From IMG/VR virus record IMGVR_UViG_3300006226_001702, positions 75,064 through 139,063 of that record: a stretch of DNA of 64,000 bases. One strand, 5' to 3'. Shown piece after piece: positions 34,500 through 50,356 of this stretch. This DNA is from a virus (Duplodnaviria > Heunggongvirae > Uroviricota > Caudoviricetes). Both the position numbers and the translations under genes were made by a program. Within the stretch, counting starts at the first letter, position 1. The number at the start of each line of letters is the position of its first letter. The notes beneath the pieces are model-generated. The model was not told the DNA's origin, made no database searches, and saw nothing but the letters and a program-made list of their open reading frames with translations.

Positions 34500-34546
34500 T
34501 TTCTACCCTCCGATATTATATAAGATACGCAAGACTTGCGTTTACT

Positions 34547-35074
34547 TCAACCAGCACCCCAGCCATGTCTGGGTTTGGGAGCCCTTTCATCTTCCTTAAC
34601 TTTTGCCATAAACTCACCTTTTGTGAGGATATCATACATCTCAATCTCAACGTTGAATAAGTTGGGCTGTTTATGCATGGCGCCACCTGTTTTAGTAACA
34701 TTAAAATGGGGGAACATCCAAGGGCGGGCAGCGTAGTATTTCATAAGCCGCTGAACATCGGTGCTCTTTTGATTTTCCCAGACAAGGCGGCGAGTGAATC
34801 TTTCCTCGACCACATTCCGCTTTTCCTCAGAACTGTAGAATTCTACATAATAAGTGTTAGTTCTTGCCACTTTAATCTCCCTTAAGTTTATTGGTTTACC
34901 GTATAATAATATATAAGACTGATAGAATTCATGTTCAAAATCAATAGTAATTCTACTCCAGAGAAAAGGCCCAAGTCTTCTGGAGTTTAGCTTGACCTCA
35001 GCTTTTCTTTCATAGCTAAATTTATCTTTAAAGATGAAAGAGTTTTCATAGTCAAGAATGATTATATCTAACAT
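34547..35074 (-). CDS. Hypothetical protein
   Basis: 175-aa ORF. Confidence 0.6.
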   Translation of the reverse strand: MLDIIILDYENSFIFKDKFSYERKAEVKLNSRRLGPFLWSRITIDFEHEFYQSYILLYGKPINLREIKVARTNTYYVEFYSSEEKRNVVEERFTRRLVWENQKSTDVQRLMKYYAARPWMFPHFNVTKTGGAMHKQPNLFNVEIEMYDILTKGEFMAKVKEDERAPKPRHGWGAG

Positions 35075-35085
35075 ACTAAATAGAT

Positions 35086-36356: not shown

Positions 36357-37661
36357 TTAGTCACTATATTTTGATTGTTCCGGCCTAACATTATTGTGAA
36401 AATAGATATTTGACTTATTTCCTTCTGGATGAATTATTCGTTTGTTGTCCCAATCTTCAAGCACTTTTCTACATTCGTCAATCCAAAACTTAGTTGTACG
36501 AACTGGAACATTTTGGCCAACTACTGAACCAAAAGAATGGAAATTATGTAAATAGTTTAAGTCATGTGGAAGTCCCATAAAGTGCATATATTCTCTAAAA
36601 GTGAAACATCTATCTTCTATTGGATGTAATGCGCTCCAAGTGTTACCATGATAAACAGTTGGCATTTTCTCATTAGCAACTGAAAAGAATGACCTATCAT
36701 AATAGCCCATTCCAATTGCTTTTTTACCCAAACAATAATCATAATGTGCTTTTAATTTTTCATCTTTGTGGAACTTGTAAAACTCATCAGCTAATCCATT
36801 TAGAATAATAAAGCTTTTTAATCTATATCTTCCAACTGTATCTCGCCAATTTTTTCCAAACTTTTTGCTAATAAAAGCATACTCTTGATTTCCATCTAAA
36901 GTGTAACATTCAAACTCTTTAGTATTCTGAGTTGCGTTTGTTGGTATTCTTGAAAGGTATTCCGTAATAGTGCCAACTTTTTTGCTTTCAAATCCAATTA
37001 CAGGTGGTGGAATATCATCTTTTAACCACTTCCAAAATATCACATAAGTTCGTGGTCTATATTGAATGTTGTCATGAAGATAAGTATCTGTTTTAACATA
37101 AGTTACAGAATAACCAGAAACTTCAGCAATTTCATTTAAGTAATCTCTAACAACTTTTCCCTTTGGTGTATAAAGAGCAGGAGCATTTTCAAATAAGTAC
37201 ACTTTTGGTCTAACTGATTGTAAAACAAATTTAGTGAGAAACTTGAGGTTGTTGTTTTTCATTGAGTCATCTTTGCCATGGTCAGCTGTATTTGCTGCTG
37301 ATAAACCACTACAAACTGGCACTGAAACTATTAAGTCAACTGACTTTAAAGTTGTATCTTCTGGATTAAAATTGGCATTGCTATATTCATTATCATTTGT
37401 TATAGCAACTGGTCCATTTATATCATCAAACATTCCTCTGTTAAATTGTACATAAGGAGGAAGTTTTTTCTTTTTCTTGAGGTATTCTAAAAAATGTCTT
37501 TCGTTTCCAATGCCTCGTAAAGAGCCATCTTTTCCAAAAATTTCTTTTTCTAATCCAGGATATGATAATATCCAATTTGCCTGTTTACCAAATGATTGTT
37601 CGCCTGCGAAATAAGCACCACCAGTTAGCGGTTGAATTGCGGCCCATGTTAAATTACTCAT
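36357..37661 (-). CDS. Divergent DNA cytosine-C5 methyltransferase-like protein
   Basis: Motif IV PVCSGLS, VI FENAP, VIII IQYRPRTYVIF, IX FTFREYMHFMGLP, X GQNVP; atypical motif I (QPLTGG). Confidence 0.75.
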   Translation of the reverse strand: MSNLTWAAIQPLTGGAYFAGEQSFGKQANWILSYPGLEKEIFGKDGSLRGIGNERHFLEYLKKKKKLPPYVQFNRGMFDDINGPVAITNDNEYSNANFNPEDTTLKSVDLIVSVPVCSGLSAANTADHGKDDSMKNNNLKFLTKFVLQSVRPKVYLFENAPALYTPKGKVVRDYLNEIAEVSGYSVTYVKTDTYLHDNIQYRPRTYVIFWKWLKDDIPPPVIGFESKKVGTITEYLSRIPTNATQNTKEFECYTLDGNQEYAFISKKFGKNWRDTVGRYRLKSFIILNGLADEFYKFHKDEKLKAHYDYCLGKKAIGMGYYDRSFFSVANEKMPTVYHGNTWSALHPIEDRCFTFREYMHFMGLPHDLNYLHNFHSFGSVVGQNVPVRTTKFWIDECRKVLEDWDNKRIIHPEGNKSNIYFHNNVRPEQSKYSD

Positions 37662-39703: not shown

Positions 39704-40468
39704 TTATTTAGTTATATTTTTATGTTTCATTACACCTCTAACATATCCCTCAGGAATCTCATTTTCTTTTACTCTTTTGTTATTTACACCGTTATTCACC
39801 CAAATAAGCGAACTAAAATGATTTCGTAATAATTGTTTTGATTCAGATGTATGATTTTTTCCTTTCATCCATGTAGTTTTTCCTTTATTTGATTGACCTA
39901 TTTTTATTTTTGTTTCTTCAGAATGCTGATAATCAATTCTTGATTTAAGTCTTTTTTGTACTGTTTCTGATGTTTGTTTTTTTCCTGTAAGTGCTTCACT
40001 TATTCTTAAACAAAATTCTTTAGACCTCTTTTTTCCTTTATTTGCAATTCTTATTTTTTCTATAGTTTCTTTTGATGGTTTTCTGCCCATCATTCTCAAA
40101 CTTTGTCTTCTGTTCATTTCTTCTGTATGTTTTTTACCACTTATTCCTTTTCTATTTTCACTCATTTTTCTAACTGCTTCAGAAGTTTCTTTAGTTTGTC
40201 CTTTTCTATGATAATTATTATGTTCTTCAATAGTCATTTTAACAGCATATTTCATTATACCATCAAAATCAAATCCCCATCGTTCATAATGAGCATCATT
40301 AAAAGCTCTTTGTTCTTCTGTCTCACGAAGATGATGAATTACATAGCCTTTTGTTATATTAAAATAACCTACAGCCATATTTTTAAATTTATATGACCTA
40401 TTTGTTGATGTTCTCCATTCTTTTATATTCATAATATTTAGTATTAAACATTCAAATAACTCACTCAT
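39704..40468 (-). mobile_element. Free-standing HNH homing endonuclease with NUMOD3-type repeats
   Basis: VIHH...EEHNNYH nuclease core; repeated H(T/S)EE.K.KI/S..KGK units; WVNNG tail. Confidence 0.75.
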
Positions 40469-40506: not shown

Positions 40507-40923
40507 ATGGAAGGCCGCAATTTTATCGAGTGGACTGATAAAGAATTCTCAATAAATAACGACATTCTAGATGCACAGCATAAAGGATTCGTTAAAATGA
40601 TTAATGATATCTTTAATAACATAAACTTAATTGACAGAAGTAAAGAGTTTGAATATTTTGAATGTGTTAAAGAAGACATCTCTAATTATCTAAAAATCCA
40701 CTTTTACACAGAAGAAAAGATAATGGGGAAACTCAATATTTGTAAGGAACTAGTTAAGGCTCATATTAAAGAACATGATAAGTTTATTGAAAACTTTGAT
40801 ATGATAATTAAGAACTTCAAAAAAGAGGACCTAAATCTTGATGAATTAGTTTTTTTCTTAATAGACTGGATTGCTGATCACGTCCAGACTATTGATAAAA
40901 AAACTTTTAAGGAAGTAAACTAA
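40507..40923 (+). CDS. Bacteriohemerythrin
   Basis: Complete di-iron ligand set: QH, HFYTEE (HxxxE), HIKEH (HxxxH), HVQTID (HxxxxD); N-terminal IEW..EFS. Confidence 0.9.
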   Translation: MEGRNFIEWTDKEFSINNDILDAQHKGFVKMINDIFNNINLIDRSKEFEYFECVKEDISNYLKIHFYTEEKIMGKLNICKELVKAHIKEHDKFIENFDMIIKNFKKEDLNLDELVFFLIDWIADHVQTIDKKTFKEVN

Positions 40924-41507
40924 TGAATAGAAATATCATTATCGCTGATATAGACGACACACTGATAAAATCATCTCCAGACGATATTGGTATTTGGAAA
41001 ATGAAAGATGGAGAAGAAACTCGACTAACGACTGAGGAGTTTGCTGAAGACCCAGATAAGGGAAAGCCTGGAATAACTTATGATTATTGGGAGTTTGAAG
41101 ACCCAAAAAGAGTTAGAGACAGTATTATGAATGGCACACCTCTTATTAGAAACTTAGAGATTATTGATGATTATCTTGATAATGGATATGATTTCGTTTT
41201 CCTAACAGCCCGTGGTTGTGAAGATGTTATCAAAGATGTAATGGCTGACTTTATGAAATATCGTTCAAAAGATGGTGAGTTAAAAGAATTGGGTGATAAG
41301 TTCAAAAGAAGTCTTTCTTATGCTGTTAATGATGAAAAATATTGTGAGATATTTGATGGCTTAAAAGATTTTGAAAGAAAAGCCAGCGTTATTAAACATA
41401 TTGCTAGAATGTATGATGACGTTATTTTCATTGATGATGATGATAGAAACTTAGAAGCTGTTAAAAATCTAGACTTACAAAACGTTTCAGTAGTTAAAGC
41501 GACTTAA
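40923..41507 (+). CDS. HAD-superfamily phosphatase
   Basis: Motif I DIDDT, motif II LTARG, motif IV FIDDD..N. Confidence 0.8.
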   Translation: MNRNIIIADIDDTLIKSSPDDIGIWKMKDGEETRLTTEEFAEDPDKGKPGITYDYWEFEDPKRVRDSIMNGTPLIRNLEIIDDYLDNGYDFVFLTARGCEDVIKDVMADFMKYRSKDGELKELGDKFKRSLSYAVNDEKYCEIFDGLKDFERKASVIKHIARMYDDVIFIDDDDRNLEAVKNLDLQNVSVVKAT

Positions 41508-42184
41508 ATCCTTTTTCCCATTCTAACAAAAGCCTCTGTGTTACCAAATCTTTTTAAGTCTCTATTATAAAGAACATCAAAGTTATCTTCAAACCATTTT
41601 AATAGCTCCCTAGATTCTTCTTCTTTTTTCCTACAGTGAATTTCGATAGCAAGATACTTAATGTATTTTGGAAGCTTAGTCCAGTCAATAGTGTATTCAC
41701 CACCTTCTGTGTCCATCTTCAAAATAGTTGGTTTGTATTTTTTGAGCTCATCATAAAATGACAAAGTTGGAACAGTTATCTTATCTCTTCCTCTCACTGG
41801 AATAATTGAATGAGTTCCCATGCATGGTTTAGTACCAGCTTTTCTTCTAGTTATGTAAAAATCAATTGTGCCAACTTCTCCAGCCATTGCGACATTATTT
41901 AGAATTGCATTACCCAATTTCTGTTTAGACAACACTTGAAAGTTTTCAGGTTCTGGCTCGTAAGAGATAACTTGTTTTGCTCCATATTTTAGAGCATTAT
42001 ATGCAAAGACGCCAATATTAGCACCAACGTCCATAACGACTTGGTCTTCACAAACTTTGAAAATTTCTTTATATTCATACATCTCTTTTAAGACGTCTAA
42101 ATCTCCAGTGTCAGGTCTATAAAATAATCCAGTTTTAGCATCTTCTAAAATAACGAGATTATTATTTCCAAATGTAAATGACAT
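41504..42184 (-). CDS. FkbM-family SAM-dependent methyltransferase
   Basis: MDVGANIGVF, ISYEPEPENF, ILKMDTEGGEY. Confidence 0.85.
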   Translation of the reverse strand: MSFTFGNNNLVILEDAKTGLFYRPDTGDLDVLKEMYEYKEIFKVCEDQVVMDVGANIGVFAYNALKYGAKQVISYEPEPENFQVLSKQKLGNAILNNVAMAGEVGTIDFYITRRKAGTKPCMGTHSIIPVRGRDKITVPTLSFYDELKKYKPTILKMDTEGGEYTIDWTKLPKYIKYLAIEIHCRKKEEESRELLKWFEDNFDVLYNRDLKRFGNTEAFVRMGKRI

Positions 42185-43083
42185 TAAAGTCCTCCAAATT
42201 TAAATCCATTCAATTGTTTGTATTCATCAGGATATTCTTTTATGTACCATTCTGGATATTTGACAGCATTTTTTGCACTAATTTTTGCTCCCATGACTCC
42301 ATTCAAATCCCAATGAATAATGTTTGGATATTTTTTAATTAGATATCTATAAACATCTTTATGCTTTTTGGACTGTTCTGCCTTTTTAGTTTGCTCTACA
42401 TTTAAGTCCCATGCTTGTGATTTAATTTTCTTGTCATAAACTGCTTCTAAAAAGTTTACTGTCTTTCCAGAAAAACCACTCTTAATAAATCTACAAACGA
42501 GTTCAACATCTTCTCCAACACCTAATGGACAATCTTTATCAAAGTTTATGTTGTGCTGTTTCATTAGTTCAATGTTTATTCCATAACAACCAGCAAATAA
42601 AGTATGTGAACTTTTAGATAATGGAGTTGTTCCTTTATAAGATTTGTTTGGACCAAATAATTTTAATCCAATTTGACTAGAAGGTATTTTAACAAACCAA
42701 TCTTTTTCAACATCAATATATTGTTCAATAGTGGCAAAGAAAGAAGCAATATCGACTGGGATGTATTTTGAATCTAAATCCTTAGTTTGGAACTTGATAT
42801 AATCATCATCAATGAACCAAGCAAATTTAGTTCCCAATTCCTGCTGATGCTTAATCATATCATATCTTTTTTCAGCAATATTTCTCTTTGGACCTTGTAC
42901 AATTATGTTACCAGTTTTTTCGTATTCTTCTTTATCATCAGTTACATCAATATAAATGTAAGCACTTAATTTTGATTTCTTTAAATGCTCAAAAGTATGT
43001 CCAACTGGCCTCTGATGACTGGGCACACAAATTGGATATTTTGGTGTGCCTTTTATAATGTAATCTAAATGAGTTTTCATCAT
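42184..43083 (-). CDS. GT-A glycosyltransferase, TET-associated (TAGT/GREB1-like) type
   Basis: YPICVPSHQR, NIAEKRYDM, AWFIDDD (DxD), GEDVE. Confidence 0.7.
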   Translation of the reverse strand: MMKTHLDYIIKGTPKYPICVPSHQRPVGHTFEHLKKSKLSAYIYIDVTDDKEEYEKTGNIIVQGPKRNIAEKRYDMIKHQQELGTKFAWFIDDDYIKFQTKDLDSKYIPVDIASFFATIEQYIDVEKDWFVKIPSSQIGLKLFGPNKSYKGTTPLSKSSHTLFAGCYGINIELMKQHNINFDKDCPLGVGEDVELVCRFIKSGFSGKTVNFLEAVYDKKIKSQAWDLNVEQTKKAEQSKKHKDVYRYLIKKYPNIIHWDLNGVMGAKISAKNAVKYPEWYIKEYPDEYKQLNGFKFGGL

Positions 43084-43085
43084 AT

Positions 43086-44390
43086 TTAATTTATGAAACT
43101 AGAATGCTGCACTTTGTTAGTTTCAAGCTCCATCAATATTTTGTTAGTTTCTGCTATCTTACAATTTATTGGGCAATATCTAGTATTTAATTCCTCCCCT
43201 TGTTTATAACGATAATCACTATTCCAAATATCAATTAAACGATTATCTGCTGTTATTTTTCCATAATAGCCACTCTTTGATCCATTATTGTAATCATTTA
43301 ATTTGAAACAACAAGTTAGGACTACACCTTCTGAAGTGATAGTTGGATATAATGCATGTCCATAACATTTCTTAAAAGGTATTCCAGTTTTTTCATATTT
43401 AATCAATTCTGCAAACTTATATGAGATAGTATAAACTTTGAAGGTGTCAGTTGAATAAGCAGACACATTAGATAATAGACTAAATATCTCCTTATCCCAA
43501 AATATGAAGGCAAGATTTAATCTATCTTCTGGGAATAAAACTATTGGTTTAATTTGTATATAATCGACACCAATTTTTCTAAAAGTATTTATTGCAGGAA
43601 GTACATCGAGATAATTATATGGAGTTAAAAGATAAGACACCCCAATAGTTATATCTGAATTATTTTCTCTTTTACATTGGACTGCTCTTTCAATAGCAGC
43701 AACAGTTTCATCAAAGTCAGCTACATTTCCATGCATCTCTTTATAAACTGTATCACTACCAGCATCAACTGAAAATCTAACCCATTGACAATAATCAATA
43801 ACAGGTTTTGGGTCCTTCAATAATTGACCATTAGTTATTAAGCCAACATCAAAATGTTGATTTAATGCTCTAATAATCTCTTGCCATTTTGGATGGCATA
43901 ATGGTTCACCACCTCCAGATAAGTTAACACCCTTAACCCCAAGTGTCTTCATATCTTCAACTAAGTTTGGCAATAATTTCATGTCAAAATTATGTTTCTG
44001 TTGTGGTGATAATTCTTTAACTGAAAAGGTACAACCTGGGCAAGCATGATTACAGAAAGTAGAAGGATGCATTTCAACAGTAACTGGTCCAACTTCTTTT
44101 CGAGTTTCTGGACAGAGATAATCTCTTAATTTGTCAAAATGAGATAATATCTTATTTGAAGTAAAGATAGAAGATTTTTGATTTGCAAATCTATTGTAGA
44201 ATTCCTCTAAGTTTTTCTGTTCTTCATCTAACATAATAGTTTTGACTTTAATAACAGTTTGTGCAGGTAACATTTCGGTGTTGTGAATAAACATATTATA
44301 GTCACTCAATGTGAGTCCTATCTGATTTGCAAAATCGTCTTTAGACAATTTTAATTGATTTCTTAATTTTTCTAAAACTTCTGTTCTCAT
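43086..44390 (-). CDS. XRE-type HTH fused to a radical SAM enzyme with SPASM/twitch-like tail
   Basis: N-terminal LEKLRNQLKLSKDDFANQIGL HTH; CNHACPGC (CxxxCxxC); SGGGEP; LITNG; C-terminal KCY...TCC...CPINC. Confidence 0.85.
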   Translation of the reverse strand: MRTEVLEKLRNQLKLSKDDFANQIGLTLSDYNMFIHNTEMLPAQTVIKVKTIMLDEEQKNLEEFYNRFANQKSSIFTSNKILSHFDKLRDYLCPETRKEVGPVTVEMHPSTFCNHACPGCTFSVKELSPQQKHNFDMKLLPNLVEDMKTLGVKGVNLSGGGEPLCHPKWQEIIRALNQHFDVGLITNGQLLKDPKPVIDYCQWVRFSVDAGSDTVYKEMHGNVADFDETVAAIERAVQCKRENNSDITIGVSYLLTPYNYLDVLPAINTFRKIGVDYIQIKPIVLFPEDRLNLAFIFWDKEIFSLLSNVSAYSTDTFKVYTISYKFAELIKYEKTGIPFKKCYGHALYPTITSEGVVLTCCFKLNDYNNGSKSGYYGKITADNRLIDIWNSDYRYKQGEELNTRYCPINCKIAETNKILMELETNKVQHSSFIN

Positions 44391-45361
44391 AATTGACCAA
44401 ATTTCTCCTTGAAACTTTTTGGTGTTGCATTCTTGATTAGATTAACCCATTCATAACCGTCGGATTTTGATTTCATTGAATCTCTAGCATAAAAAGTTTC
44501 ATTCTCTTCTAATATGTCCTGTAAAAAGTTATCCAATGAATCTGTTCTCCATCTATATTGAATTGGTCTCAATGATGATAAGCCTCGTCTAATAACGATA
44601 TCCGCCATATTGACTTTTCTCATTGCCATTACATTTTCACTTCCCCATTTCTTGTAAAGATTAAAACCTAACATACAAGTTTTATCTAAACCAGTAGAAA
44701 AGAATGCTCCCTTTTTAACTCGAGCATCTTGTGAAGTAGCTTTTTGAGCAGCATATTCAATATAAGTCATGGGTCTAATTCCCTGCTCTAATAATTGTAA
44801 GAAGTAATCATAATCTTCCCACATCATAATATCAGTAGTGTGATAAATAAGTTTACCACATTTTTCTCTCATTTTTTTCAAGTCCCAATAATGAATTGAT
44901 ATTGGACTCATGTGACAATATTTTGCTGGACGATGAATTCTATTCTTAATAAAATTGCTTCCTGCCATACCTCCATAAATGTGTTCGATTTCTGGAAGCT
45001 CTGGCCATCTAACATAAGGTACAGTTAGATTACGAATAAAATCTTCTTTACTGTAAGGGCCAAACTTACAAAGTCGTGATATGTTTTCATCAAACATCCA
45101 AACTTTATTATAGCCGTGAGCCTCTGCCCAATCCATAACATAATTCTTTAATGATGACATATTAGACTGTGTATCTTTATATGGCATTCCGTTATGTTCA
45201 ACAGCAAAATTTTTCGGTTTCCAATCTGGAAATTCGTTTTTATCTACAAATGCTACGACATCTTGTTTGTCATTAGAATGAAAAACATTCTTATATTTAA
45301 TGTCATCATATTTACAAAACGGTCCCCTTCCAGCCAAAATTGTTACTAAAGTTTTACTCAT
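44387..45361 (-). CDS. Second GT-A glycosyltransferase, TAGT-like
   Basis: NYVMDWAEAHGYNKVWMFDENI and WEDYDYFLQLL. Confidence 0.65.
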   Translation of the reverse strand: MSKTLVTILAGRGPFCKYDDIKYKNVFHSNDKQDVVAFVDKNEFPDWKPKNFAVEHNGMPYKDTQSNMSSLKNYVMDWAEAHGYNKVWMFDENISRLCKFGPYSKEDFIRNLTVPYVRWPELPEIEHIYGGMAGSNFIKNRIHRPAKYCHMSPISIHYWDLKKMREKCGKLIYHTTDIMMWEDYDYFLQLLEQGIRPMTYIEYAAQKATSQDARVKKGAFFSTGLDKTCMLGFNLYKKWGSENVMAMRKVNMADIVIRRGLSSLRPIQYRWRTDSLDNFLQDILEENETFYARDSMKSKSDGYEWVNLIKNATPKSFKEKFGQL

Positions 45362-45756
45362 GTCCTTTCCTTGATATTTTTAAGTACTCCATATCCTGAA
45401 GTTACTAGTATTGGTATGTTGTTTTTAATATGTATTAGAATGCTTTCAAATTCATCTACAATTGGTGGATAAGCATTTTTATTTCCAAGGCTCACCGCAA
45501 TTCTTGCACTCTCTAAAATCTTTTGCATATCCACACAAGCATTTAAAGTTTTTTCTACTGCTTCTGTTAGTTGTGTTACTCTTCTATTAGCTAATTCTCT
45601 ATTTACTCCAATTCCAAACATTGCGTTATAGATACTTTTTTCTTCATCATCTTCACCAACTAAATCATCTAAATCTATTGGTTGATAGTCCATAGCATCT
45701 TCTACATCTGAGAGAAGTTGGTCGATTTCTTTTTGACTCAAAGTTCCATCACTCAT
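45358..45756 (-). CDS. Protein with N-terminal FliM/FliY-like CheY-binding peptide
   Basis: MSDGTLSQKEIDQLL; class II motif 5 nt upstream. Confidence 0.7.
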   Translation of the reverse strand: MSDGTLSQKEIDQLLSDVEDAMDYQPIDLDDLVGEDDEEKSIYNAMFGIGVNRELANRRVTQLTEAVEKTLNACVDMQKILESARIAVSLGNKNAYPPIVDEFESILIHIKNNIPILVTSGYGVLKNIKERT

Positions 45757-45761
45757 ATTCT

Positions 45762-45770
45762 TATATTAAC
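45762..45770 (-). promoter_or_regulatory. Class II motif GTTAATATA
   Basis: GTTAATATA-AGAAT-ATG(45756). Confidence 0.65.
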
Positions 45771-46083
45771 TTTTACAAAACTGGCAATTACAATTAGTCT
45801 TACCAGAGAAAATGCAAACATCGTCATTTTCAGTTTTATCTTCCTCTGGAAAATTAAAGTCAGCAAAATCATCGAATTCTATTCCTGGAAACTCTAATTT
45901 TTTCGGAGGAAGATTTAACTTCACATTAACTTGTTTTACTACTTTCGGTTGTGGGGATTCAATAACTGTTGGTTTATATGGCCTGTTATATGTATGTCTT
46001 TTATATAAAATTGGAATAATAATCGTCAAGAGCCAGACGCCAGTCATTGATATGATAATTGAAAGTAGAATTTCTTCAATCAT
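45766..46083 (-). CDS. Small single-pass membrane protein
   Basis: N-terminal TM helix; C-terminal CxxC. Confidence 0.65.
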   Translation of the reverse strand: MIEEILLSIIISMTGVWLLTIIIPILYKRHTYNRPYKPTVIESPQPKVVKQVNVKLNLPPKKLEFPGIEFDDFADFNFPEEDKTENDDVCIFSGKTNCNCQFCKS

Positions 46084-46241
46084 TTTCTTGTATAAGTTTC
46101 CTCTTCTCCATATATCATTTTATTATCTTCATACAATTTAATTAAAATGTTGTATAATTCTTCTTGTTCTTTTTTATCTAATTCTACCTTCCCAACTGGA
46201 GTCTTAAATTCGTGAATCCAATATTCTATTCTGTCAGTCAT
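46080..46241 (-). CDS. 53-aa hypothetical protein (not in track)
   Basis: MTDRIEYWIHEFKTPVG...; SD AAGGAG; ATGA overlap with the next gene. Confidence 0.6.
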   Translation of the reverse strand: MTDRIEYWIHEFKTPVGKVELDKKEQEELYNILIKLYEDNKMIYGEEETYTRK

Positions 46242-46252
46242 AATTATGCTCC

Positions 46253-46441
46253 TTAATCAAATAATTCTGATCTTCCAAGTAGTTTTTCTACTGTCTTTAG
46301 TGCTTTAGTGAGTCTTAAATCAAATATGTTTAATCTCCTATTTACTACACTTACATCATTTTCTACTCTTGCTATTGTTGTTTCTAACTCCTTTAAGTAC
46401 ACAAACCAATCATTGTTTGTTTTTACTTGTTCTATTGTCAT
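46253..46441 (-). CDS. Small coiled-coil hypothetical protein
   Basis: 62-aa ORF; SD AAGGA. Confidence 0.6.
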   Translation of the reverse strand: MTIEQVKTNNDWFVYLKELETTIARVENDVSVVNRRLNIFDLRLTKALKTVEKLLGRSELFD

Positions 46442-47360
46442 TAATGCATTCCTTTATAGTTTTTCTAACTGCATCATCAGATGATCTATCAACTATAAAA
46501 CCTAATTTCTGTAATTTATCGACATTAAAACTGAATGTGTTAATGTCGCCCACATACCCGGTGGGGTTTGCTCCGTATTGAATGTTATTGCAATTAAATT
46601 CTTTAGCTACCCATTCGGCCATATCCTTCAATTTAGTTTTCGATTTATCGTATGGCGCTACATTAAATACATTAACCTTCTTAGCAGAATTAAACCACAA
46701 AAAGATTATTGCATCAATTAAATCTTTAACATGTATGTACGGTTTGCATTGAGACCCATCTCCCAACACTTCTAATTTTTTTGGATTTTCTTTTAACTGT
46801 CTAATAAAATTCCAAAGAGCTCCATGAGTCATTCTTGGGCCAATAACATTTGGGAATCTTATTATTAAAGTATGCATTCCATAGTTTTCAGCAAAGGAAG
46901 ATATAAAAGCTTCAGAAGCTAATTTTGCTGCCCCATAATGTGATAATGGTAAAAGTGGCCCACTAGATTCTAACAAACTCATATTTCCATGGTCACCATA
47001 AACTGTTGACGATGATGAAAATATGAAGTTCTTTATTTTATTTACACGGGCTATTTCAAGCATATAAAATGTTGAAAGAAAAGTTTCATTCAAATCAAAA
47101 GAGCTATCCTCTATTGACTTAAAAGTATCAGCATTAGAAGCGATGTGAAAAATTGCATCCACTCCTTCAAATATTGAATCTGGAAGTGTTTTAATATCTT
47201 TTGCAATTAACTGAAACTTATCACTTTTAATATGTTTGATATTATTTTCAGTTCCTTTGGAGAAATTATCAATCCCAATAACTTCGTAATCTTGAGCTAA
47301 TAATGCGTCAACTAAATGACTACCAATAAAGCCAGCGGCACCCGTACAAATAACTTTCAA
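46410..47360 (-). CDS. NAD-dependent NDP-sugar epimerase (UDP-glucose 4-epimerase-like extended SDR)
   Basis: TGAAGFIGSHL, SSSSTVYG, YGAAK (YxxxK), RFPNVIGPR, LEVLGDGSQ; TTG start with GGAGG SD. Confidence 0.9.
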   Translation of the reverse strand: MKVICTGAAGFIGSHLVDALLAQDYEVIGIDNFSKGTENNIKHIKSDKFQLIAKDIKTLPDSIFEGVDAIFHIASNADTFKSIEDSSFDLNETFLSTFYMLEIARVNKIKNFIFSSSSTVYGDHGNMSLLESSGPLLPLSHYGAAKLASEAFISSFAENYGMHTLIIRFPNVIGPRMTHGALWNFIRQLKENPKKLEVLGDGSQCKPYIHVKDLIDAIIFLWFNSAKKVNVFNVAPYDKSKTKLKDMAEWVAKEFNCNNIQYGANPTGYVGDINTFSFNVDKLQKLGFIVDRSSDDAVRKTIKECINDNRTSKNKQ

Positions 47361-47370
47361 AAGTTACCTC

Positions 47371-48033
47371 CTATAATTCTAATAATTTATTTAAAGTTTC
47401 TTCTGCGCTATTTCCAGGTTGAACAGTTTTCCAGACTTCATATTCACCACCATCTTTATGAACCATTGAAGCCATATCTTCATAAGCTTGTTTAACTCTA
47501 GTTTCAAAAGAGTCACCGGCTGTTTCAAACAAATCATTTACTCCAATAGAACGATTTCCCACTCTATCTGGAAAATAGTAAATGATATTTGGTGTTACAT
47601 CTGGATAAGGATTTTTGAAAAAGTTTATAACATGCATTACTTTTTCTTTTGAATGATACTTTAACATATCATCAATAATTTGCTTGCCATAAAATTGATA
47701 AGCAATGCACGAATAAGTGTGTCTATCACATATAACAGTTTTACCTGCTTTCAAGTTCGGTCTAATTATTTTGGCAATGCATTCAGCTTTATCCAACATA
47801 AATGCATGCATATTTCCATAAGAAGATAATTCCCATCGTTTATCTTTACAAAGAGAACGAAGCGTTGTTGCTAATGGACCCCAATCACCACCAGGTTGTC
47901 TAGTCATAATTGTGTCAATTCCCTCTGAGTTTAGTTTATCGGCCAAAAGTTTTGCAACACTAGTTTTTCCAGTAGCGTCAAAACCTTCAAACACGATAAA
48001 TTTATTCTTGAATTTGTTCATTAAAAGCTCCAT
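47371..48033 (-). CDS. tmk: Thymidylate kinase-like dNMP kinase
   Basis: FIVFEGFDATGKT, TRQPGG, VICDRH. Confidence 0.85.
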   Translation of the reverse strand: MELLMNKFKNKFIVFEGFDATGKTSVAKLLADKLNSEGIDTIMTRQPGGDWGPLATTLRSLCKDKRWELSSYGNMHAFMLDKAECIAKIIRPNLKAGKTVICDRHTYSCIAYQFYGKQIIDDMLKYHSKEKVMHVINFFKNPYPDVTPNIIYYFPDRVGNRSIGVNDLFETAGDSFETRVKQAYEDMASMVHKDGGEYEVWKTVQPGNSAEETLNKLLEL

Positions 48034-48253
48034 AGCTTAATTTAGTCATAATACTGTCACCTTGAATCGCTACAAAATCAGCAGCTCTTAACTCTAAAAT
48101 TATTTTAGATAACTCAATAAAGTTTATATTTCCACCAGCATCAAGTTTAGTGTGAATTAAATGTTCGAGACAATTTAACACACCATCTCTAGTGTTATCA
48201 GAAACTAAATGAATTTCTTTTTCGCTCAATAACATGCGCTTTCCAGATGACAT
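48002..48253 (-). CDS. Hypothetical protein
   Basis: 83-aa ORF in operon. Confidence 0.6.
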   Translation of the reverse strand: MSSGKRMLLSEKEIHLVSDNTRDGVLNCLEHLIHTKLDAGGNINFIELSKIILELRAADFVAIQGDSIMTKLSYGAFNEQIQE

Positions 48254-48262
48254 TATTATTTC

Positions 48263-48904
48263 CTATTTTAGATTATCGTCATAAATATCGTTATATGCCG
48301 TTTCAGTCATGTTCAAATTAGTTATTTTAGTTTGATAAATGTCGTCAACATCTTTTTCTTCTGTAACTTTTGCATATAAATTAAGAGCACCTTTAAATTC
48401 TGCTTTTGGTGAGAAATTAATGTCTTCAGCAACTTGTGTACAACCAAAATTTATCTCATCAGCAAGCTCACAAATAGTAGCTTGAAAACCTTTCATGTTA
48501 TCTATTGCGGCCCAAGTTTCGTCAATGTCATTTACTCTAACATCTTTGTTTTTAACTTTAATCTCAATACCATGAGCTGCCATTGCTTCAAAGTATGGCT
48601 CTAACAAATCTGGATTACCAGTTGCATACAAGTCATCAATTATTTGAAGTAACTTCTTAAAAGTTGGACTCACTCTGTCCTTAAATTTTTCATTTGGGTC
48701 GAGCTCTAATGGGTTACCCATCCAGCCTCTTTTGTGGTAGTAAGAATAATCCTTACAACGAATCATGACAGGCTTCTCGATTTTTTGCATCTTTGCCATA
48801 TCTGCTGCCACCATGTTCATATGCTTTGAAGCAGTTTTCTTTTCAGTTAAAAGACCATAAGCTTCCGATAGCAATTCTTTTGGTGTCGTTTGTTTTTCTG
48901 ACAT
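48263..48904 (-). CDS. Hypothetical protein
   Basis: 213-aa ORF; SD AAGGAG; class II motif at 48924-48932. Confidence 0.7.
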   Translation of the reverse strand: MSEKQTTPKELLSEAYGLLTEKKTASKHMNMVAADMAKMQKIEKPVMIRCKDYSYYHKRGWMGNPLELDPNEKFKDRVSPTFKKLLQIIDDLYATGNPDLLEPYFEAMAAHGIEIKVKNKDVRVNDIDETWAAIDNMKGFQATICELADEINFGCTQVAEDINFSPKAEFKGALNLYAKVTEEKDVDDIYQTKITNLNMTETAYNDIYDDNLK

Positions 48905-48931
48905 ATTTTATCTCCTTGAATGTTATATTAA

Positions 48932-49786
48932 CTATTGTATAAATCCAGAATTTGGATTTTCATACATCTTTTTGACTTCTGGTTGATTATGTAGATATTC
49001 AAAATACTCTTTAATGATTTTATCAAGTAATTCAAAGTCTCTTTCATAAATGTGAAGTGAGCCTGCATTCCAATAAATGTTTCCACGTTCTGGATCCATG
49101 CTACTAAACATTCTAATATCTTTTAGAAAATATTCATAAACAAATCCATGCCATGGTAAGTCACCACAATGAAGTCCTCTAATAACATCATTACTTCTCA
49201 TTGTAACAATATAATCAAATCTATTTTTTCTAATAAAATGTTGTGTTGTTATAGTACAAGTAAAATCAGATTTAGCATTTATTCCATCATTCCATTCCCA
49301 TTGCATTTGTGGACGACCATAATAGATTATTGACTGTCTTCCATCTGGTTTTTCAATAAGTTGTTCTAAAGCATATTTATATTGAGATTTTTCAACTTTA
49401 TTTCTTGGTATATAAATATGTCTTTTATTATCAGTAAGTCCATCATAATAGATCCTTCCATTTTCTGGACTAAAAACACACCAACCATAATTTGAATTAA
49501 CTCGGCCATCATCAGTACAAATGCGGGACCAAATTTTATTATCTTCAATTCCCTTATGTCCCTTAATACATCTGTCTTGACTCATGTACCATTTGTGTTC
49601 ATTTTCTATATATTTATGTTGAGCTTTTCTGGATTCACCAAGATGAAGTTTAGTATCAGTTGCATCAAAAACAAGATTTGCATTAATGATTTCAGCTGTT
49701 CCTGCAACTAAATCATTTTTCTTAATTTTTTCCTGTAATGGAATTAAAACATTTTCAATGAGATAAATAGCGTTTTTTGTGTACAT
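48932..49786 (-). CDS. dCMP hydroxymethylase-like enzyme (T4 gp42 branch of the thymidylate synthase superfamily)
   Basis: NSNYGW..F, RQSIIYYGRPQMQ, DFTCT, MRSNDV..G....DLPW and IYWNAGSLHIY mirror T4 gp42 (DFMCT, MRSNDVVFGFRNDYAW, IIWNVGSLHVY, as recalled). Confidence 0.8.
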   Translation of the reverse strand: MYTKNAIYLIENVLIPLQEKIKKNDLVAGTAEIINANLVFDATDTKLHLGESRKAQHKYIENEHKWYMSQDRCIKGHKGIEDNKIWSRICTDDGRVNSNYGWCVFSPENGRIYYDGLTDNKRHIYIPRNKVEKSQYKYALEQLIEKPDGRQSIIYYGRPQMQWEWNDGINAKSDFTCTITTQHFIRKNRFDYIVTMRSNDVIRGLHCGDLPWHGFVYEYFLKDIRMFSSMDPERGNIYWNAGSLHIYERDFELLDKIIKEYFEYLHNQPEVKKMYENPNSGFIQ

Positions 49787-49807
49787 ATTCCTTTCCTTAA
49801 GTTTATT

Positions 49808-50356
49808 TTATAAAAACTTATTTGCGTGTAAATGATGTTTAACTTCATCAAATACTTGTTCTATTGTCTTTCCAGTTATATTGATTAATGTTTTGTGTTT
49901 AATGTTACTCTTTTCATAAAACTCTTTGAAACGATTTATCTCATCAGTTTTCTTTTCAAGTTCAACTGAAAAAGATTTTCCATCATCTCTGCTAATTAAA
50001 TCTTGTGGGTCAGCAACGAATACATATAATTTTATATTATTTAAGACTCGCCTGCCAAATCTTTCTTCAATTTCATAAACATAGTCACCAATGTAATTTC
50101 TATAAATTGAACTATAAACTGTTTCACCACCATGTGCTCTATCCATTGCAAGATTCAAATTATTATAAGTGGCGAACTTAATTAGATTAAACATTTCTGT
50201 GTAATGACGTTCTGATTTCTCTTTAACATTATCTCCCTTAATAGATGAATAATGCAAAACATGAATCGTTTGTCCATTTTCTTCCAGATATTTTTTGATT
50301 AAATCTAACTGTGTTGATTTTCCAACCCTATCAGGTCCTTCTATCAAAATAACCAT
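49808..50356 (-). CDS. Second nucleoside-monophosphate kinase (P-loop)
   Basis: ILIEGPDRVGKST, MDRAH..E.VY. Confidence 0.8.
   Translation of the reverse strand: MVILIEGPDRVGKSTQLDLIKKYLEENGQTIHVLHYSSIKGDNVKEKSERHYTEMFNLIKFATYNNLNLAMDRAHGGETVYSSIYRNYIGDYVYEIEERFGRRVLNNIKLYVFVADPQDLISRDDGKSFSVELEKKTDEINRFKEFYEKSNIKHKTLINITGKTIEQVFDEVKHHLHANKFL

Follow-up and report, generated by a model that had tools for sequence, protein, structure and literature searches.

What chemistry is carried out by a phage gene block that places a radical enzyme between two glycosyltransferases of a family known from DNA modification? The question is posed by positions 40923-50356 of a 64,000-nucleotide stretch of DNA (the window), which comprises bases 75064-139063 of the 198.6-kb IMG/VR virus record IMGVR_UViG_3300006226_001702 (∼60% complete by CheckV). 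On grounds of sequence, structure prediction, and synteny, we read this block as a two-stage pathway of DNA cytosine hypermodification, in which glycosylated 5-hydroxymethylcytosine (hmC) would undergo tailoring by a radical S-adenosylmethionine (rSAM) enzyme and a methyltransferase. We put the probability of this reading at roughly 0.58.

The phage is uncultivated and is known from a metagenomic record. The window (G+C content, 28-43%) encodes baseplate proteins, helicases, and an NrdD-type anaerobic ribonucleotide reductase; on the basis of NrdD, the host setting is anaerobic. We read the virus as a jumbo (giant) phage of an anaerobe. The surroundings of the block are those of replication and nucleotide metabolism, with a helicase gene and NrdD close by, and it is located outside the structural block. 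When the block was searched at the nucleotide level, none of 50,697 deposited phage records matched. Annotation combined a listing of open reading frames (ORFs) with three profile libraries (Pfam, PHROGs, and NCBIfam), and the genes named within 40923-50356 are intact ORFs in that listing. In the direction of transcription, the minus-strand genes of the block are as follows.

49808-50356, minus strand: divergent Tmk-like P-loop nucleoside monophosphate (NMP) kinase, 182 residues (PF02223, 4.2e-10; phrog_761, 1.7e-08).
48932-49786, minus strand: predicted dCMP hydroxymethylase of the ThyA fold with an insert of ∼25 residues (PDB 1b49, E 2.6e-34; PF00303, 1.2e-13).
48263-48904, minus strand: conserved all-helical protein, 213 residues, between the hydroxymethylase and Tmk (no family match).
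48002-48253, minus strand: 83-residue ORF overlapping the Tmk start (no family match).
47371-48033, minus strand: thymidylate kinase Tmk, 220 residues (PF02223, 3.7e-20; TIGR00041).
46410-47360, minus strand: nucleoside diphosphate (NDP)-sugar 4-epimerase of the extended short-chain dehydrogenase/reductase (SDR) type, 316 residues (PF01370, 3.6e-45; PDB 8rdg, 6.8e-62).
45766-46441, minus strand: three small ORFs of 62, 53, and 105 residues (from the ORF listing; not conserved in relatives by BLAST).
45358-45756, minus strand: acidic 132-residue ORF that opens the glycosyltransferase operon and overlaps the next gene by 4 nucleotides.
44387-45361, minus strand: GT1, TAGT-family GT-A glycosyltransferase, 324 residues (PF20691, 2.1e-09).
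43086-44390, minus strand: enzyme with an XRE-type helix-turn-helix (HTH), a radical SAM domain, and a twitch/SPASM-like domain (HTH-rSAM), 434 residues (PF12844, PF04055, PF13186).
42184-43083, minus strand: GT2, TAGT-family GT-A glycosyltransferase, 299 residues (PF20691, 9.8e-10).
41504-42184, minus strand: FkbM-family SAM methyltransferase, 226 residues (PF05050, 2.6e-13; TIGR01444).

An earlier note on this DNA had described one co-oriented run with an NMP kinase, a second Tmk-like kinase, an epimerase, and an FkbM methyltransferase, with a haloacid dehalogenase (HAD) phosphatase converging on it. The profile matches agree with that description, and a plus-strand gene at 40923-41507 does face the minus-strand block. 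Every family that the note named is present where it was placed, the HAD call being weakly supported; the note passed over the conserved 213-residue protein, the 83-residue ORF, and the four small ORFs. From the 132-residue ORF through GT1, the rSAM gene, GT2, and the FkbM gene, neighbors overlap by 1 to 4 nucleotides or lie 3 nucleotides apart, which suggests translational coupling within this operon.

Which base the block supplies can be read from the ThyA-fold enzyme. Its best solved relative is the T4 dCMP hydroxymethylase gp42 (1b49), compared with matches of 1e-05 for true thymidylate synthases (TS), and its closest cultured homologs are T4-like gp42 proteins (34-37% identity). Three ThyA positions have been reported to be diagnostic (Lee et al., NAR 2026, PMC13326640): replacement of L143 by D or E admits water and gives a hydroxymethyl rather than a methyl product; N177D selects dCMP rather than dUMP as the substrate; and D169 is kept in hydroxymethylases, whereas RB69 and DLP3 have N at this position in their 5-hydroxy-dCMP synthases, which depend on flavin and O2. 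In the window enzyme, the motif DFTCT (aligned with T4 DFMCT) places D at the 143 position, three residues before the catalytic Cys; MRSND keeps D169; and GLHCGD carries N177D, aligning with T4 GFRND at the position marked by the D179N mutant chain 6l18. Asp also occupies the L143, D169, and N177 positions in the orthologs of four related metagenomic contigs (L001, L002, L005, and L007), in which the D169 motif reads RSND or RSGD. By all three published residues, the enzyme is predicted to be a T4-type dCMP hydroxymethylase, and the retention of D169, in this enzyme and its orthologs alike, predicts a hydroxymethyl product. The gp42-like dCMP hydroxymethylase of the earlier note is thereby borne out, as the signature is that of this enzyme and not of the dTMP, hydroxymethyl-dUMP, or 5-hydroxy-dCMP type. 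Two alternatives were considered and rejected on single residues, namely, a 5-hydroxy-dCMP synthase (D169) and a dUMP hydroxymethylase (N177D). The source record encodes a separate ThyX outside the window (record positions 34531-35079; E 6.2e-47); thus, the ThyA-fold gene would be dispensable for dTMP.

Two kinases could act next. In the 182-residue protein, the Pfam Thymidylate_kin match is limited to the P-loop, phrog_761 spans residues 1-172, and the match to a PDB Tmk (3hjn) is weak. The gene lies directly upstream of the hydroxymethylase gene, and orthologs of 46-59% identity adjoin the TS homolog in L001, L002, L005, L007, and L016, which makes its product a candidate 5-hydroxymethyl-dCMP (hm-dCMP) kinase. 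The second kinase passes the TIGR00041 cutoff (84.7 versus 83.25 bits) and matches a PDB Tmk (5x8v) at 3.5e-17. A 5-hydroxymethyluracil DNA kinase (5-HMUDK) was rejected for both proteins, neither of which matched the HMUDK helical domain PF18723 at E 0.01; the same model fires at 3.5e-58 on a neighbor of a distant rSAM relative, a 5-hydroxymethyldeoxyuridine DNA kinase.

Both glycosyltransferases exceed the Pfam gathering cutoff of 27.5 bits for PF20691, the TAGT family (GT1, 38.1 bits; GT2, 39.1 bits; 38.9 and 38.8 bits, respectively, in a genome search). This family includes the enzyme of T2/T6 by which glucosyl-hmC receives a second glucose (PMC13216743), and the GT-A enzymes of hmC-modifying phages carry the motif R...DDD...EDY/F (Pyle et al., bioRxiv 10.1101/2023.12.21.572611). 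GT2 has the motifs FIDDDY and GEDVE and matches phrog_842, annotated as beta-glucosyl-HMC-alpha-glucosyltransferase, at 3.1e-14. GT1 and its orthologs have a variant first motif, D-[ED]-[ND] (DEN in the window), together with an invariant DYD in [ED]DYD. TAGT genes are syntenic with the hydroxymethylase gene in the window, L001, L002, L005, L007, L011, and L016, and in L014 a TAGT gene lies beside a TS homolog. The earlier proposal that two TAGT-like GT-A enzymes flank an HTH-rSAM enzyme thus holds, with both proteins above the family cutoff and synteny to the hydroxymethylase seen across several lineages. GT1 orthologs of 37-75% identity occur in all relatives, including L007, a contig without the rSAM gene; GT1 is the conserved glycosyltransferase of the block and the candidate hmC glycosyltransferase. 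GT2 has only three detectable homologs, its slot being filled by other TAGT-like glycosyltransferases in L001, L002, L005, and L011, and it is a candidate second-sugar transferase. Neither GT1 nor GT2 found a match by tblastn among the deposited phage records. A short [KR]-F-G C-terminal tail (KFGQL, FKFGGL, and FKFGKL) is common to GT1, GT2, and L002's second, unrelated TAGT; it is encoded at 42184-42200 and 44387-44405 on the minus strand of the window and at about 9980-9995 in L002. This tail may be a shared docking peptide that binds, for instance, a clamp or replisome protein.

The remaining sugar enzymes appear to be accessory. The best solved relatives of the epimerase are all 4-epimerases (8rdg; archaeal GalE 3ehe, 6.6e-58; and 3icp), and 8rdg is a promiscuous GDP-sugar 4-epimerase (PMC12171764). 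Its motifs GAAGFIG, SSSSTVYG, and YGAAK provide the GxxGxxG signature and the Ser/Thr-Tyr-Lys triad, and the Asp-Glu pair of dehydratases is absent. It scores 119.5 bits against the TIGR01179 galE equivalog cutoff of 262.3, and for this reason we call it an NDP-sugar 4-epimerase in the broad sense, whatever its nucleotide and sugar. Among the contigs compared, the epimerase is a clade-specific accessory of the window and the L016/P0003 clade. The FkbM enzyme is well above both of its cutoffs (PF05050, 50.9 versus 22.7 bits; TIGR01444, 66.5 versus 37.7 bits) and is optional, being found in L016/P0003, L002, and L011 and absent from L001 and L005.

The rSAM enzyme matches PF12844 (HTH_19; 2.7e-07), PF04055 (Radical_SAM; 2.2e-15), and PF13186 (SPASM; 1.1e-04). 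Among 38 homologs, the CxxxCxxC core [C113, C117, (C120)] and the GGGEP motif are invariant or nearly so, as are four or five C-terminal cysteines [C342, C360, (C361), C406, C410]. The SPASM score is just above the cutoff (22.8 versus 21.5 bits), and the conserved C-terminal cysteines fit one cluster, not the seven-Cys SPASM set. They suggest an auxiliary Fe-S cluster as in BtrN or anSME and, with it, BtrN- or anSME-like electron handling, i.e., oxidation. An AlphaFold2 (AF2) model built on the homolog alignment (mean predicted local distance difference test [pLDDT], 89.9) has four N-terminal helices at residues 3-68, and these match the XRE-type HTH_19 profile above its cutoff. With Foldseek, DesII ranked first (E 7e-15) and BlsE had the best target coverage (template modeling score, 0.72); against Swiss-Prot models, DesII again came first. 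VIA-align placed the model in the partial TIM-barrel fold shared by many rSAM structures (Z 17-26), with DesII (Z 25.9; 347 residues aligned) and BlsE (Z 25.0; 298/327 aligned) ahead of SkfB (22.8), SuiB (20.8), anSME (19.2), and BtrN (17.3). DesII and BlsE are sugar enzymes, and both abstract a hydrogen from a hexose carbon.

Whether these genes belong together can be judged from their recurrence. The rSAM enzyme has 25 full-length homologs (41-72% identity), all metagenomic. The NMP kinase, hydroxymethylase, 213-residue protein, Tmk, GT1, a second TAGT-like glycosyltransferase, and the rSAM enzyme recur in at least six related phage contigs (in L001, L002/L003, L005, L011, and L016/P0003), where gene order is kept at 37-75% protein identity. 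The neighborhood search proposed in the earlier note thus found the gene set again. L016/P0003 is collinear with the window from a 136-residue ORF to the C5 methyltransferase gene, including the epimerase, FkbM, and HAD-like genes. L002/L003 and L011 have the kinase, hydroxymethylase, 213-residue protein, Tmk, GT1, a different TAGT, the rSAM enzyme, and the FkbM enzyme without the epimerase. L001 and L005 resemble L002, except that the second glycosyltransferase is a 248-residue TAGT-like protein and the FkbM gene is missing. L007/L008 encode a helicase, the kinase, the hydroxymethylase, a deaminase, the 213-residue protein, and GT1 (53% identical) on an 18-kb contig without the rSAM enzyme, a second glycosyltransferase, or the FkbM enzyme. 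The contigs thus form a natural omission series: hydroxymethylase and GT1 (L007/L008), with the second glycosyltransferase and rSAM enzyme added (L001/L005), then the FkbM enzyme (L002/L011), and then the epimerase (window/L016). From this comparison, GT1 travels with the hydroxymethylase and the rSAM enzyme travels with a second, fast-evolving TAGT-like glycosyltransferase, the FkbM enzyme and epimerase being optional.

Farther afield, an alignment-based scan of IMG/VR retrieved at least 589 loci with an rSAM relative. The HTH was covered only in L016, L017, and L018; the other, HTH-less relatives start at residue 54-102. A single-sequence pattern scan of IMG/VR with the rSAM enzyme found nothing, and tblastn against the deposited phage records gave distant matches only. 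L017, L018, and the P0022 contig are unrelated 33- to 36-kb phages in which the HTH-rSAM gene lies directly beside a TAGT gene (E 1.5e-34 in L017 and 5e-44 in L018); L017 and L018 also carry a second rSAM gene and a terminase gene, and the P0022 contig carries ParB. In L010, the rSAM gene lies beside an SDR epimerase/dehydratase gene, with no TAGT called. The neighbors of short-form (HTH-less) relatives were sampled at 20 diverse loci. Among the 70 immediate neighbors were 12 GT2-family and ∼11 other glycosyltransferases, several class I methyltransferases, six further rSAM enzymes, and single cases of RmlD, DegT, TAGT, and 5-hydroxymethyldeoxyuridine DNA kinase. An SDR homolog of the window epimerase lies within 8 kb at 31 of 80 rSAM-relative loci. 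Clusters around HTH-less relatives are rich in GT2/GT4 glycosyltransferases and in methyltransferases. The HTH-bearing form was seen exclusively beside a TAGT, across three phage backbones that are unrelated to one another. The family is thus sugar linked throughout, with the HTH specific to the TAGT-linked branch. Sugar tailoring by the rSAM enzyme, as put forward earlier, accords with both its nearest structures, which are sugar-modifying radical enzymes, and the glycosyltransferases, methyltransferases, and NDP-sugar enzymes that surround its relatives.

The pathway that we propose would run as follows. In the first stage, before replication, the ThyA-fold enzyme would convert dCMP into hm-dCMP, the divergent P-loop kinase and/or Tmk would phosphorylate it, and host NDP kinase followed by the phage polymerase would bring hmC into DNA, with phage ThyX supplying dTMP. 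In the second stage, on DNA, GT1 would move a sugar from a host NDP-sugar onto the hydroxymethyl group. The HTH-rSAM enzyme would then abstract a hydrogen from a sugar carbon, and the auxiliary Fe-S cluster would aid the conversion; most likely, the sugar would either be oxidized to a keto sugar or undergo an elimination of the DesII type that leaves a deoxy-keto sugar. GT2 would attach a second sugar, the donor for which would come from the phage 4-epimerase in this clade, and the FkbM enzyme would methylate a sugar hydroxyl. Host nucleases would be blocked by the end product, a di-glycosyl-hmC that is both methylated and radical tailored. Family assignments, active-site signatures, and the conserved synteny are what the analysis shows; DNA as the acceptor, the order of the steps, the rSAM reaction, and the final structure are the parts of this scheme that we infer. 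Action on a DNA-bound sugar is favored because the HTH is present and is restricted to TAGT-linked enzymes. In its most specific form, the proposal is that the HTH-rSAM enzyme would be the first radical enzyme to act on or next to a DNA-attached glycan: the HTH would dock onto double-stranded DNA, 5'-deoxyadenosyl radical chemistry would remodel the sugar of glycosyl-hmC, the FkbM enzyme would methylate it, and a hitherto unseen keto or deoxy, O-methylated di-glycosyl-cytosine would be made without O2 in phages of anaerobes. We advance this form only tentatively, as possible rather than probable.

Several observations weigh against the two-stage reading. Only a dUTPase-family gene and no dCTPase or MazG was identified in the source record; replacement of cytosine may therefore be incomplete. 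The dUTPase-family ORF (198 residues; E 1.4e-11; record positions 180889-181164, outside the window) is a candidate dCTP/dUTP-clearing enzyme for excluding cytosine. A C5 cytosine DNA methyltransferase gene (36357-37661, minus strand; 434 residues; PF00145, 4.2e-12) lies 5 kb away from the block and is hard to square with complete hmC substitution. The rSAM enzyme tracks the second glycosyltransferase rather than GT1, a pattern that also fits an rSAM enzyme that makes a second acceptor or a special donor. The HTH-rSAM and TAGT pairs of L017, L018, and the P0022 contig occur without a TS homolog in the 33 to 36 kb available, and in these phages the rSAM enzyme may create the acceptor rather than tailor the sugar. 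Two distant rSAM relatives adjoin capsid or portal genes, so that, in the wider family, the target may be a glycan not attached to DNA. Structurally, the margin of DesII and BlsE over peptide maturases such as SkfB and SuiB is just 2 to 5 Z units. Finally, the rSAM enzyme reaches no curated equivalog cutoff (DesII TIGR04426, 33.0 versus 450 bits; BlsE TIGR04466, 20.7 versus 400 bits), its likeness to these enzymes being one of fold without equivalog membership.

The absence of a dCTPase is one of several, as the ∼60% complete record also yielded no dCMP deaminase, MazG, or NTP_transferase; at this completeness, such absences are weak evidence. The same holds for PF12851 (Tet_JBP), which had no match in the 198.6-kb record and was silent in control genomes too. 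An ortholog of the C5 methyltransferase with 65% identity occupies the same place in L016, and in the unrelated L014 a C5 methyltransferase gene adjoins genes for a TS homolog, a TAGT, an NTP-transferase, and a dUTPase.

Among the other explanations, the one that survives best is that the rSAM enzyme acts on a free NDP-sugar, in the manner of DesII, and makes a keto or deoxy donor that a TAGT transfers onto hmC; the N-terminal helices would then not bind DNA. The likeness to DesII and BlsE and the NDP-sugar neighbors keep this version alive. Both top structural matches use soluble sugar nucleotides or nucleosides, and DesII too has an N-terminal helical domain (PMC11434129). The co-occurrence of the rSAM enzyme with the second glycosyltransferase would also be expected of a donor-making enzyme, as would the SDR NDP-sugar enzymes at 31/80 relative loci, the RmlD and DegT proteins among the immediate neighbors, and the SDR epimerase/dehydratase adjoining the rSAM enzyme in L010. 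However, the second glycosyltransferase is much more divergent between the window and L002 (21% identity) than the rSAM enzyme is (49-52%), which is unexpected if GT2 took the rSAM product as its donor. In addition, the XRE-type HTH (PF12844, above the cutoff) is limited to the TAGT-linked subfamily, and VIA-align leaves rSAM residues 1-67 off the DesII N-terminal domain. Considering both sides, we find a free-donor role for the rSAM enzyme unlikely.

The HTH-rSAM and TAGT pairs without a TS homolog allow another explanation, in which the HTH-rSAM enzyme makes a second acceptor on a DNA base anaerobically, such that GT1 serves hmC and the second TAGT serves the rSAM-made site. For example, the enzyme could abstract a hydrogen from the methyl group of thymine or 5-methylcytosine; the auxiliary cluster would oxidize the radical and water would be captured, in place of O2-dependent TET/JBP chemistry. 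In the available records of L017, L018, and P0022, the HTH-rSAM enzyme has a single strong TAGT and no TS homolog, and the jumbo-phage clade has the rSAM enzyme only where a second TAGT-like glycosyltransferase is present. The anaerobic host setting (NrdD) would make TET chemistry unavailable, and a C5 methyltransferase is nearby in the window, L016, and L014. Against this, completeness is 30% for L017 and 52% for L018, both being fragments, and their second rSAM enzymes could do the acceptor job instead. The fold is nearest to sugar-modifying enzymes, with spore photoproduct lyase outside the top 50 matches; short-form relatives sit in plain glycan-type clusters; and the literature searched held no precedent for a radical SAM base hydroxylase. 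We therefore consider base-acceptor chemistry improbable. The second rSAM genes lie upstream of the HTH-rSAM gene at 3634-4779 in L017 (one gene away; B12-binding-like) and at 356-1336 in L018 (adjacent; SPASM type), with the cassette located by the terminase gene.

A third possibility leaves the hmC supply module in place and detaches the GT1-rSAM-GT2-FkbM operon from it, such that the operon would build or alter a non-DNA glycan, on a virion protein or the host envelope, and merely lie beside that module. Distant rSAM relatives do occur by capsid or portal genes, together with GT2 and GT4 enzymes, methyltransferases, a NodB-like deacetylase, and a PhyH dioxygenase, and pathways for surface glycans typically contain enzymes of the FkbM and GalE types. 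Both glycosyltransferases, however, belong to TAGT, a family known from the glycosylation of hydroxymethyl-pyrimidines in DNA, and GT1 is syntenic with the hydroxymethylase even without the rest of the operon, as well as in the distant L014. The operon encodes no signal peptide or membrane glycosyltransferase, and it lies in the replication block and not in the structural block. A non-DNA target is weakly supported and very unlikely for this operon. Also weakly supported, and the least probable of all, is an rSAM enzyme that matures a peptide or protein (of the RiPP type, made on the ribosome and modified after translation, or a small neighboring ORF) unrelated to the sugar pathway, for while SkfB, SuiB, CteB-type, and anSME structures reach Z 19-23, the best NCBIfam match is a cofactor-maturase family, and four small ORFs (one with a Cys-rich tail) lie just upstream, these ORFs are not conserved with the rSAM enzyme as the TAGTs are, the N-terminal domain consists of four XRE-type helices and not of a beta-sheet-containing peptide recognition element, and the family's neighbors are overwhelmingly glycosyltransferases.

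The two-stage hypermodification reading leaves other genes of the block to be placed. In all relatives, the 213-residue protein has an ortholog (51-67% identity) whose gene lies each time between that of the hydroxymethylase and the Tmk slot; it belongs to a family of at least 106 representative clusters. Its AF2 model is all-helical (pLDDT, 97.5). It had no Pfam, PHROG, or NCBIfam match, and a PHROG scan of 79 family members gave nothing usable. No fold match was found with Foldseek (PDB and BFVD) or among AlphaFold database clusters, the best VIA-align hit was a single helix (Z 5.1), a profile search of the PDB returned just a 26-residue PPR-like hairpin, and the ESM Atlas model of the protein was itself poor (pLDDT, 0.38). 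A distant member is encoded directly upstream of the TS homolog and TAGT in L014 and beside DNA polymerase pieces in L012. At the position of the 83-residue ORF, relatives carry small ORFs of 57 to 86 residues. The 132-residue ORF has weak orthologs in L001 (29%) and L016 (32%). Just upstream of the glycosyltransferase operon, the 105-residue ORF (45766-46083) encodes a hydrophobic N-terminal helix and a Cys-rich C-terminal tail, C-x8-C-x-C-x2-C. A scan for sigma-70 promoters and terminators gave a result no better than that from shuffled sequence.

Beyond the FkbM gene, the window continues with the following features.

40923-41507, plus strand, converging on the block: HAD-like phosphatase (weak call), 194 residues (DUF2608, 4.9e-06 over 28 residues).
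40507-40923, plus strand, converging on the block: hemerythrin (PF01814, 1.9e-10).
39704-40468, minus strand: NUMOD3-containing homing-endonuclease-like gene (PF07460, 1.7e-13), between the genes for an AAA-type protein and hemerythrin.

The HAD-like protein has the motifs DIDDT and FIDDDD, identified by eye, and a 60%-identical ortholog at the same place in L016; no PDB relative was found, and any part that it plays in the pathway is hypothetical. The adjoining hemerythrin gene points toward the operon in which the oxygen-labile radical SAM enzyme is encoded. Genes of the GIY-YIG or HNH/NUMOD3 type occur in relatives at different points of the block. The blocks of four relatives also encode a QueC-like PP-loop ATPase (L001, 6645-7409; L002, 3107-3829 [PF06508, 6.1e-11]; L005, 6626-7420; and L011, 6443-7153) that has no homolog in the window and could represent a further optional tailoring step. 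In L007, the slot after the 213-residue protein gene, where Tmk and the rSAM enzyme would be, is filled by a repeat protein of 446 to 448 residues (7697-9043, minus strand). It was considered as a hidden rSAM enzyme and rejected, as it consists of ∼10 leucine-rich-like repeats of the FDCS-N type.

Hypermodifications of phage DNA decide which restriction, CRISPR, and glycosylase defenses a phage escapes, and the enzymes that make them have become reagents, such as the T4 beta-glucosyltransferase used for hmC mapping. Known cytosine glycosylations comprise glucose, gentiobiose, arabinose on 5-hydroxycytosine, and the hexose, N-acetylhexosamine, and heptose glycans of TET-type clusters. The block predicts radical and methyl tailoring of an hmC sugar under oxygen-free conditions that rule out TET and flavin hydroxylases. 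Its relatives constitute a natural series, each short of one component, and thus a ready experimental design. Phages also emerge as carriers of a very large family of radical SAM enzymes that resemble DesII and BlsE; should the rSAM enzyme indeed act on a DNA-attached glycan, the HTH-less relatives would stand for a large class of phage glycans with radical tailoring that is so far untapped.

Among the closest known systems is the glucosyl- and gentiobiosyl-hmC pathway of the T-even phages. Like that pathway, the block would make hm-dCMP before replication with a ThyA homolog that has the same three signature residues, use a dedicated NMP kinase, and glycosylate DNA after replication, including by a TAGT enzyme able to add a second sugar. 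Unlike the T-even phages, the block has no GT-B alpha- or beta-glucosyltransferase, both of its transferases being of the TAGT type, and it adds a radical SAM enzyme, an FkbM methyltransferase, and a 4-epimerase. Its kinases are Tmk-like and not gp1-like, and it belongs to a jumbo phage of an anaerobe that has ThyX. The arabinosyl-5-hydroxycytosine pathway (RB69, DLP3, and RL38JI; PMC13326640) likewise uses a ThyA homolog and a deoxynucleoside monophosphate kinase before replication and then DNA glycosyltransferases and NDP-sugar enzymes. Its synthases, however, have D169N and produce 5-hydroxy-dCMP with flavin and O2, whereas the window enzyme keeps D169, and it lacks a radical SAM enzyme.

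Also close are the metavirome hmC clusters of Pyle, Lund, O'Toole, and Saleh (bioRxiv 10.1101/2023.12.21.572611), with two successive glycosyltransferases (subclass I) or a glycosyltransferase and an epimerase (subclass II); such glycosyltransferases associate with either a thymidylate synthase homolog or 5mYOX. These clusters share with the block GT-A enzymes of the R...DDD...EDY/F type that act on hmC, pairs of glycosyltransferases that yield di- and trisaccharides, and epimerase-dependent glycosyltransferases. In contrast, the clusters that were tested make hmC with a C5 methyltransferase and TET, and the block joins both layouts to a ThyA-type hmC supply and to radical and methyl tailoring; the terms "radical," "rSAM," and "FkbM" do not appear in that report. 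Just one radical SAM enzyme has been described as installing a DNA modification, namely, gp53 of phage M6, a glycinyl-thymine isomerase that acts on an amino acid adduct of thymidine in a hypermodification pathway with 5-HMUDK and AADT (Lee et al., NAR 2021, PMC8989533). It tailors a group already present on a hydroxymethyl-pyrimidine in polymeric phage DNA, as is proposed here for the HTH-rSAM enzyme, the differences being that its nucleoside is thymidine and not cytidine and that an amino acid, not a sugar, is attached via the 5-HMUDK phosphate. The gp53 protein was absent from the tblastn matches of the rSAM enzyme among phage records and is not a detectable relative.

At the level of the enzyme itself, DesII (a TDP-4-amino-4,6-dideoxyglucose deaminase/dehydrogenase) and BlsE (a cytosylglucuronate decarboxylase) are the best structural matches over the rSAM core and C-terminal domain, at just 16-17% sequence identity. 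DesII has been described with a single [Fe4S4] cluster (PMC11434129), unlike the phage enzyme with its four or five invariant extra cysteines and XRE-type HTH. In the full-text literature searched, no paper ties a radical SAM enzyme to glycosyl-cytosine DNA. The earlier note had not recognized the combination of genes from described systems. This needs revision in one respect, as two-glycosyltransferase and glycosyltransferase-epimerase layouts on hmC had already been described, and stands in the other. Taken together, the block is a variation on known phage DNA glycosylation, with rSAM and FkbM additions that are new relative to the literature searched.

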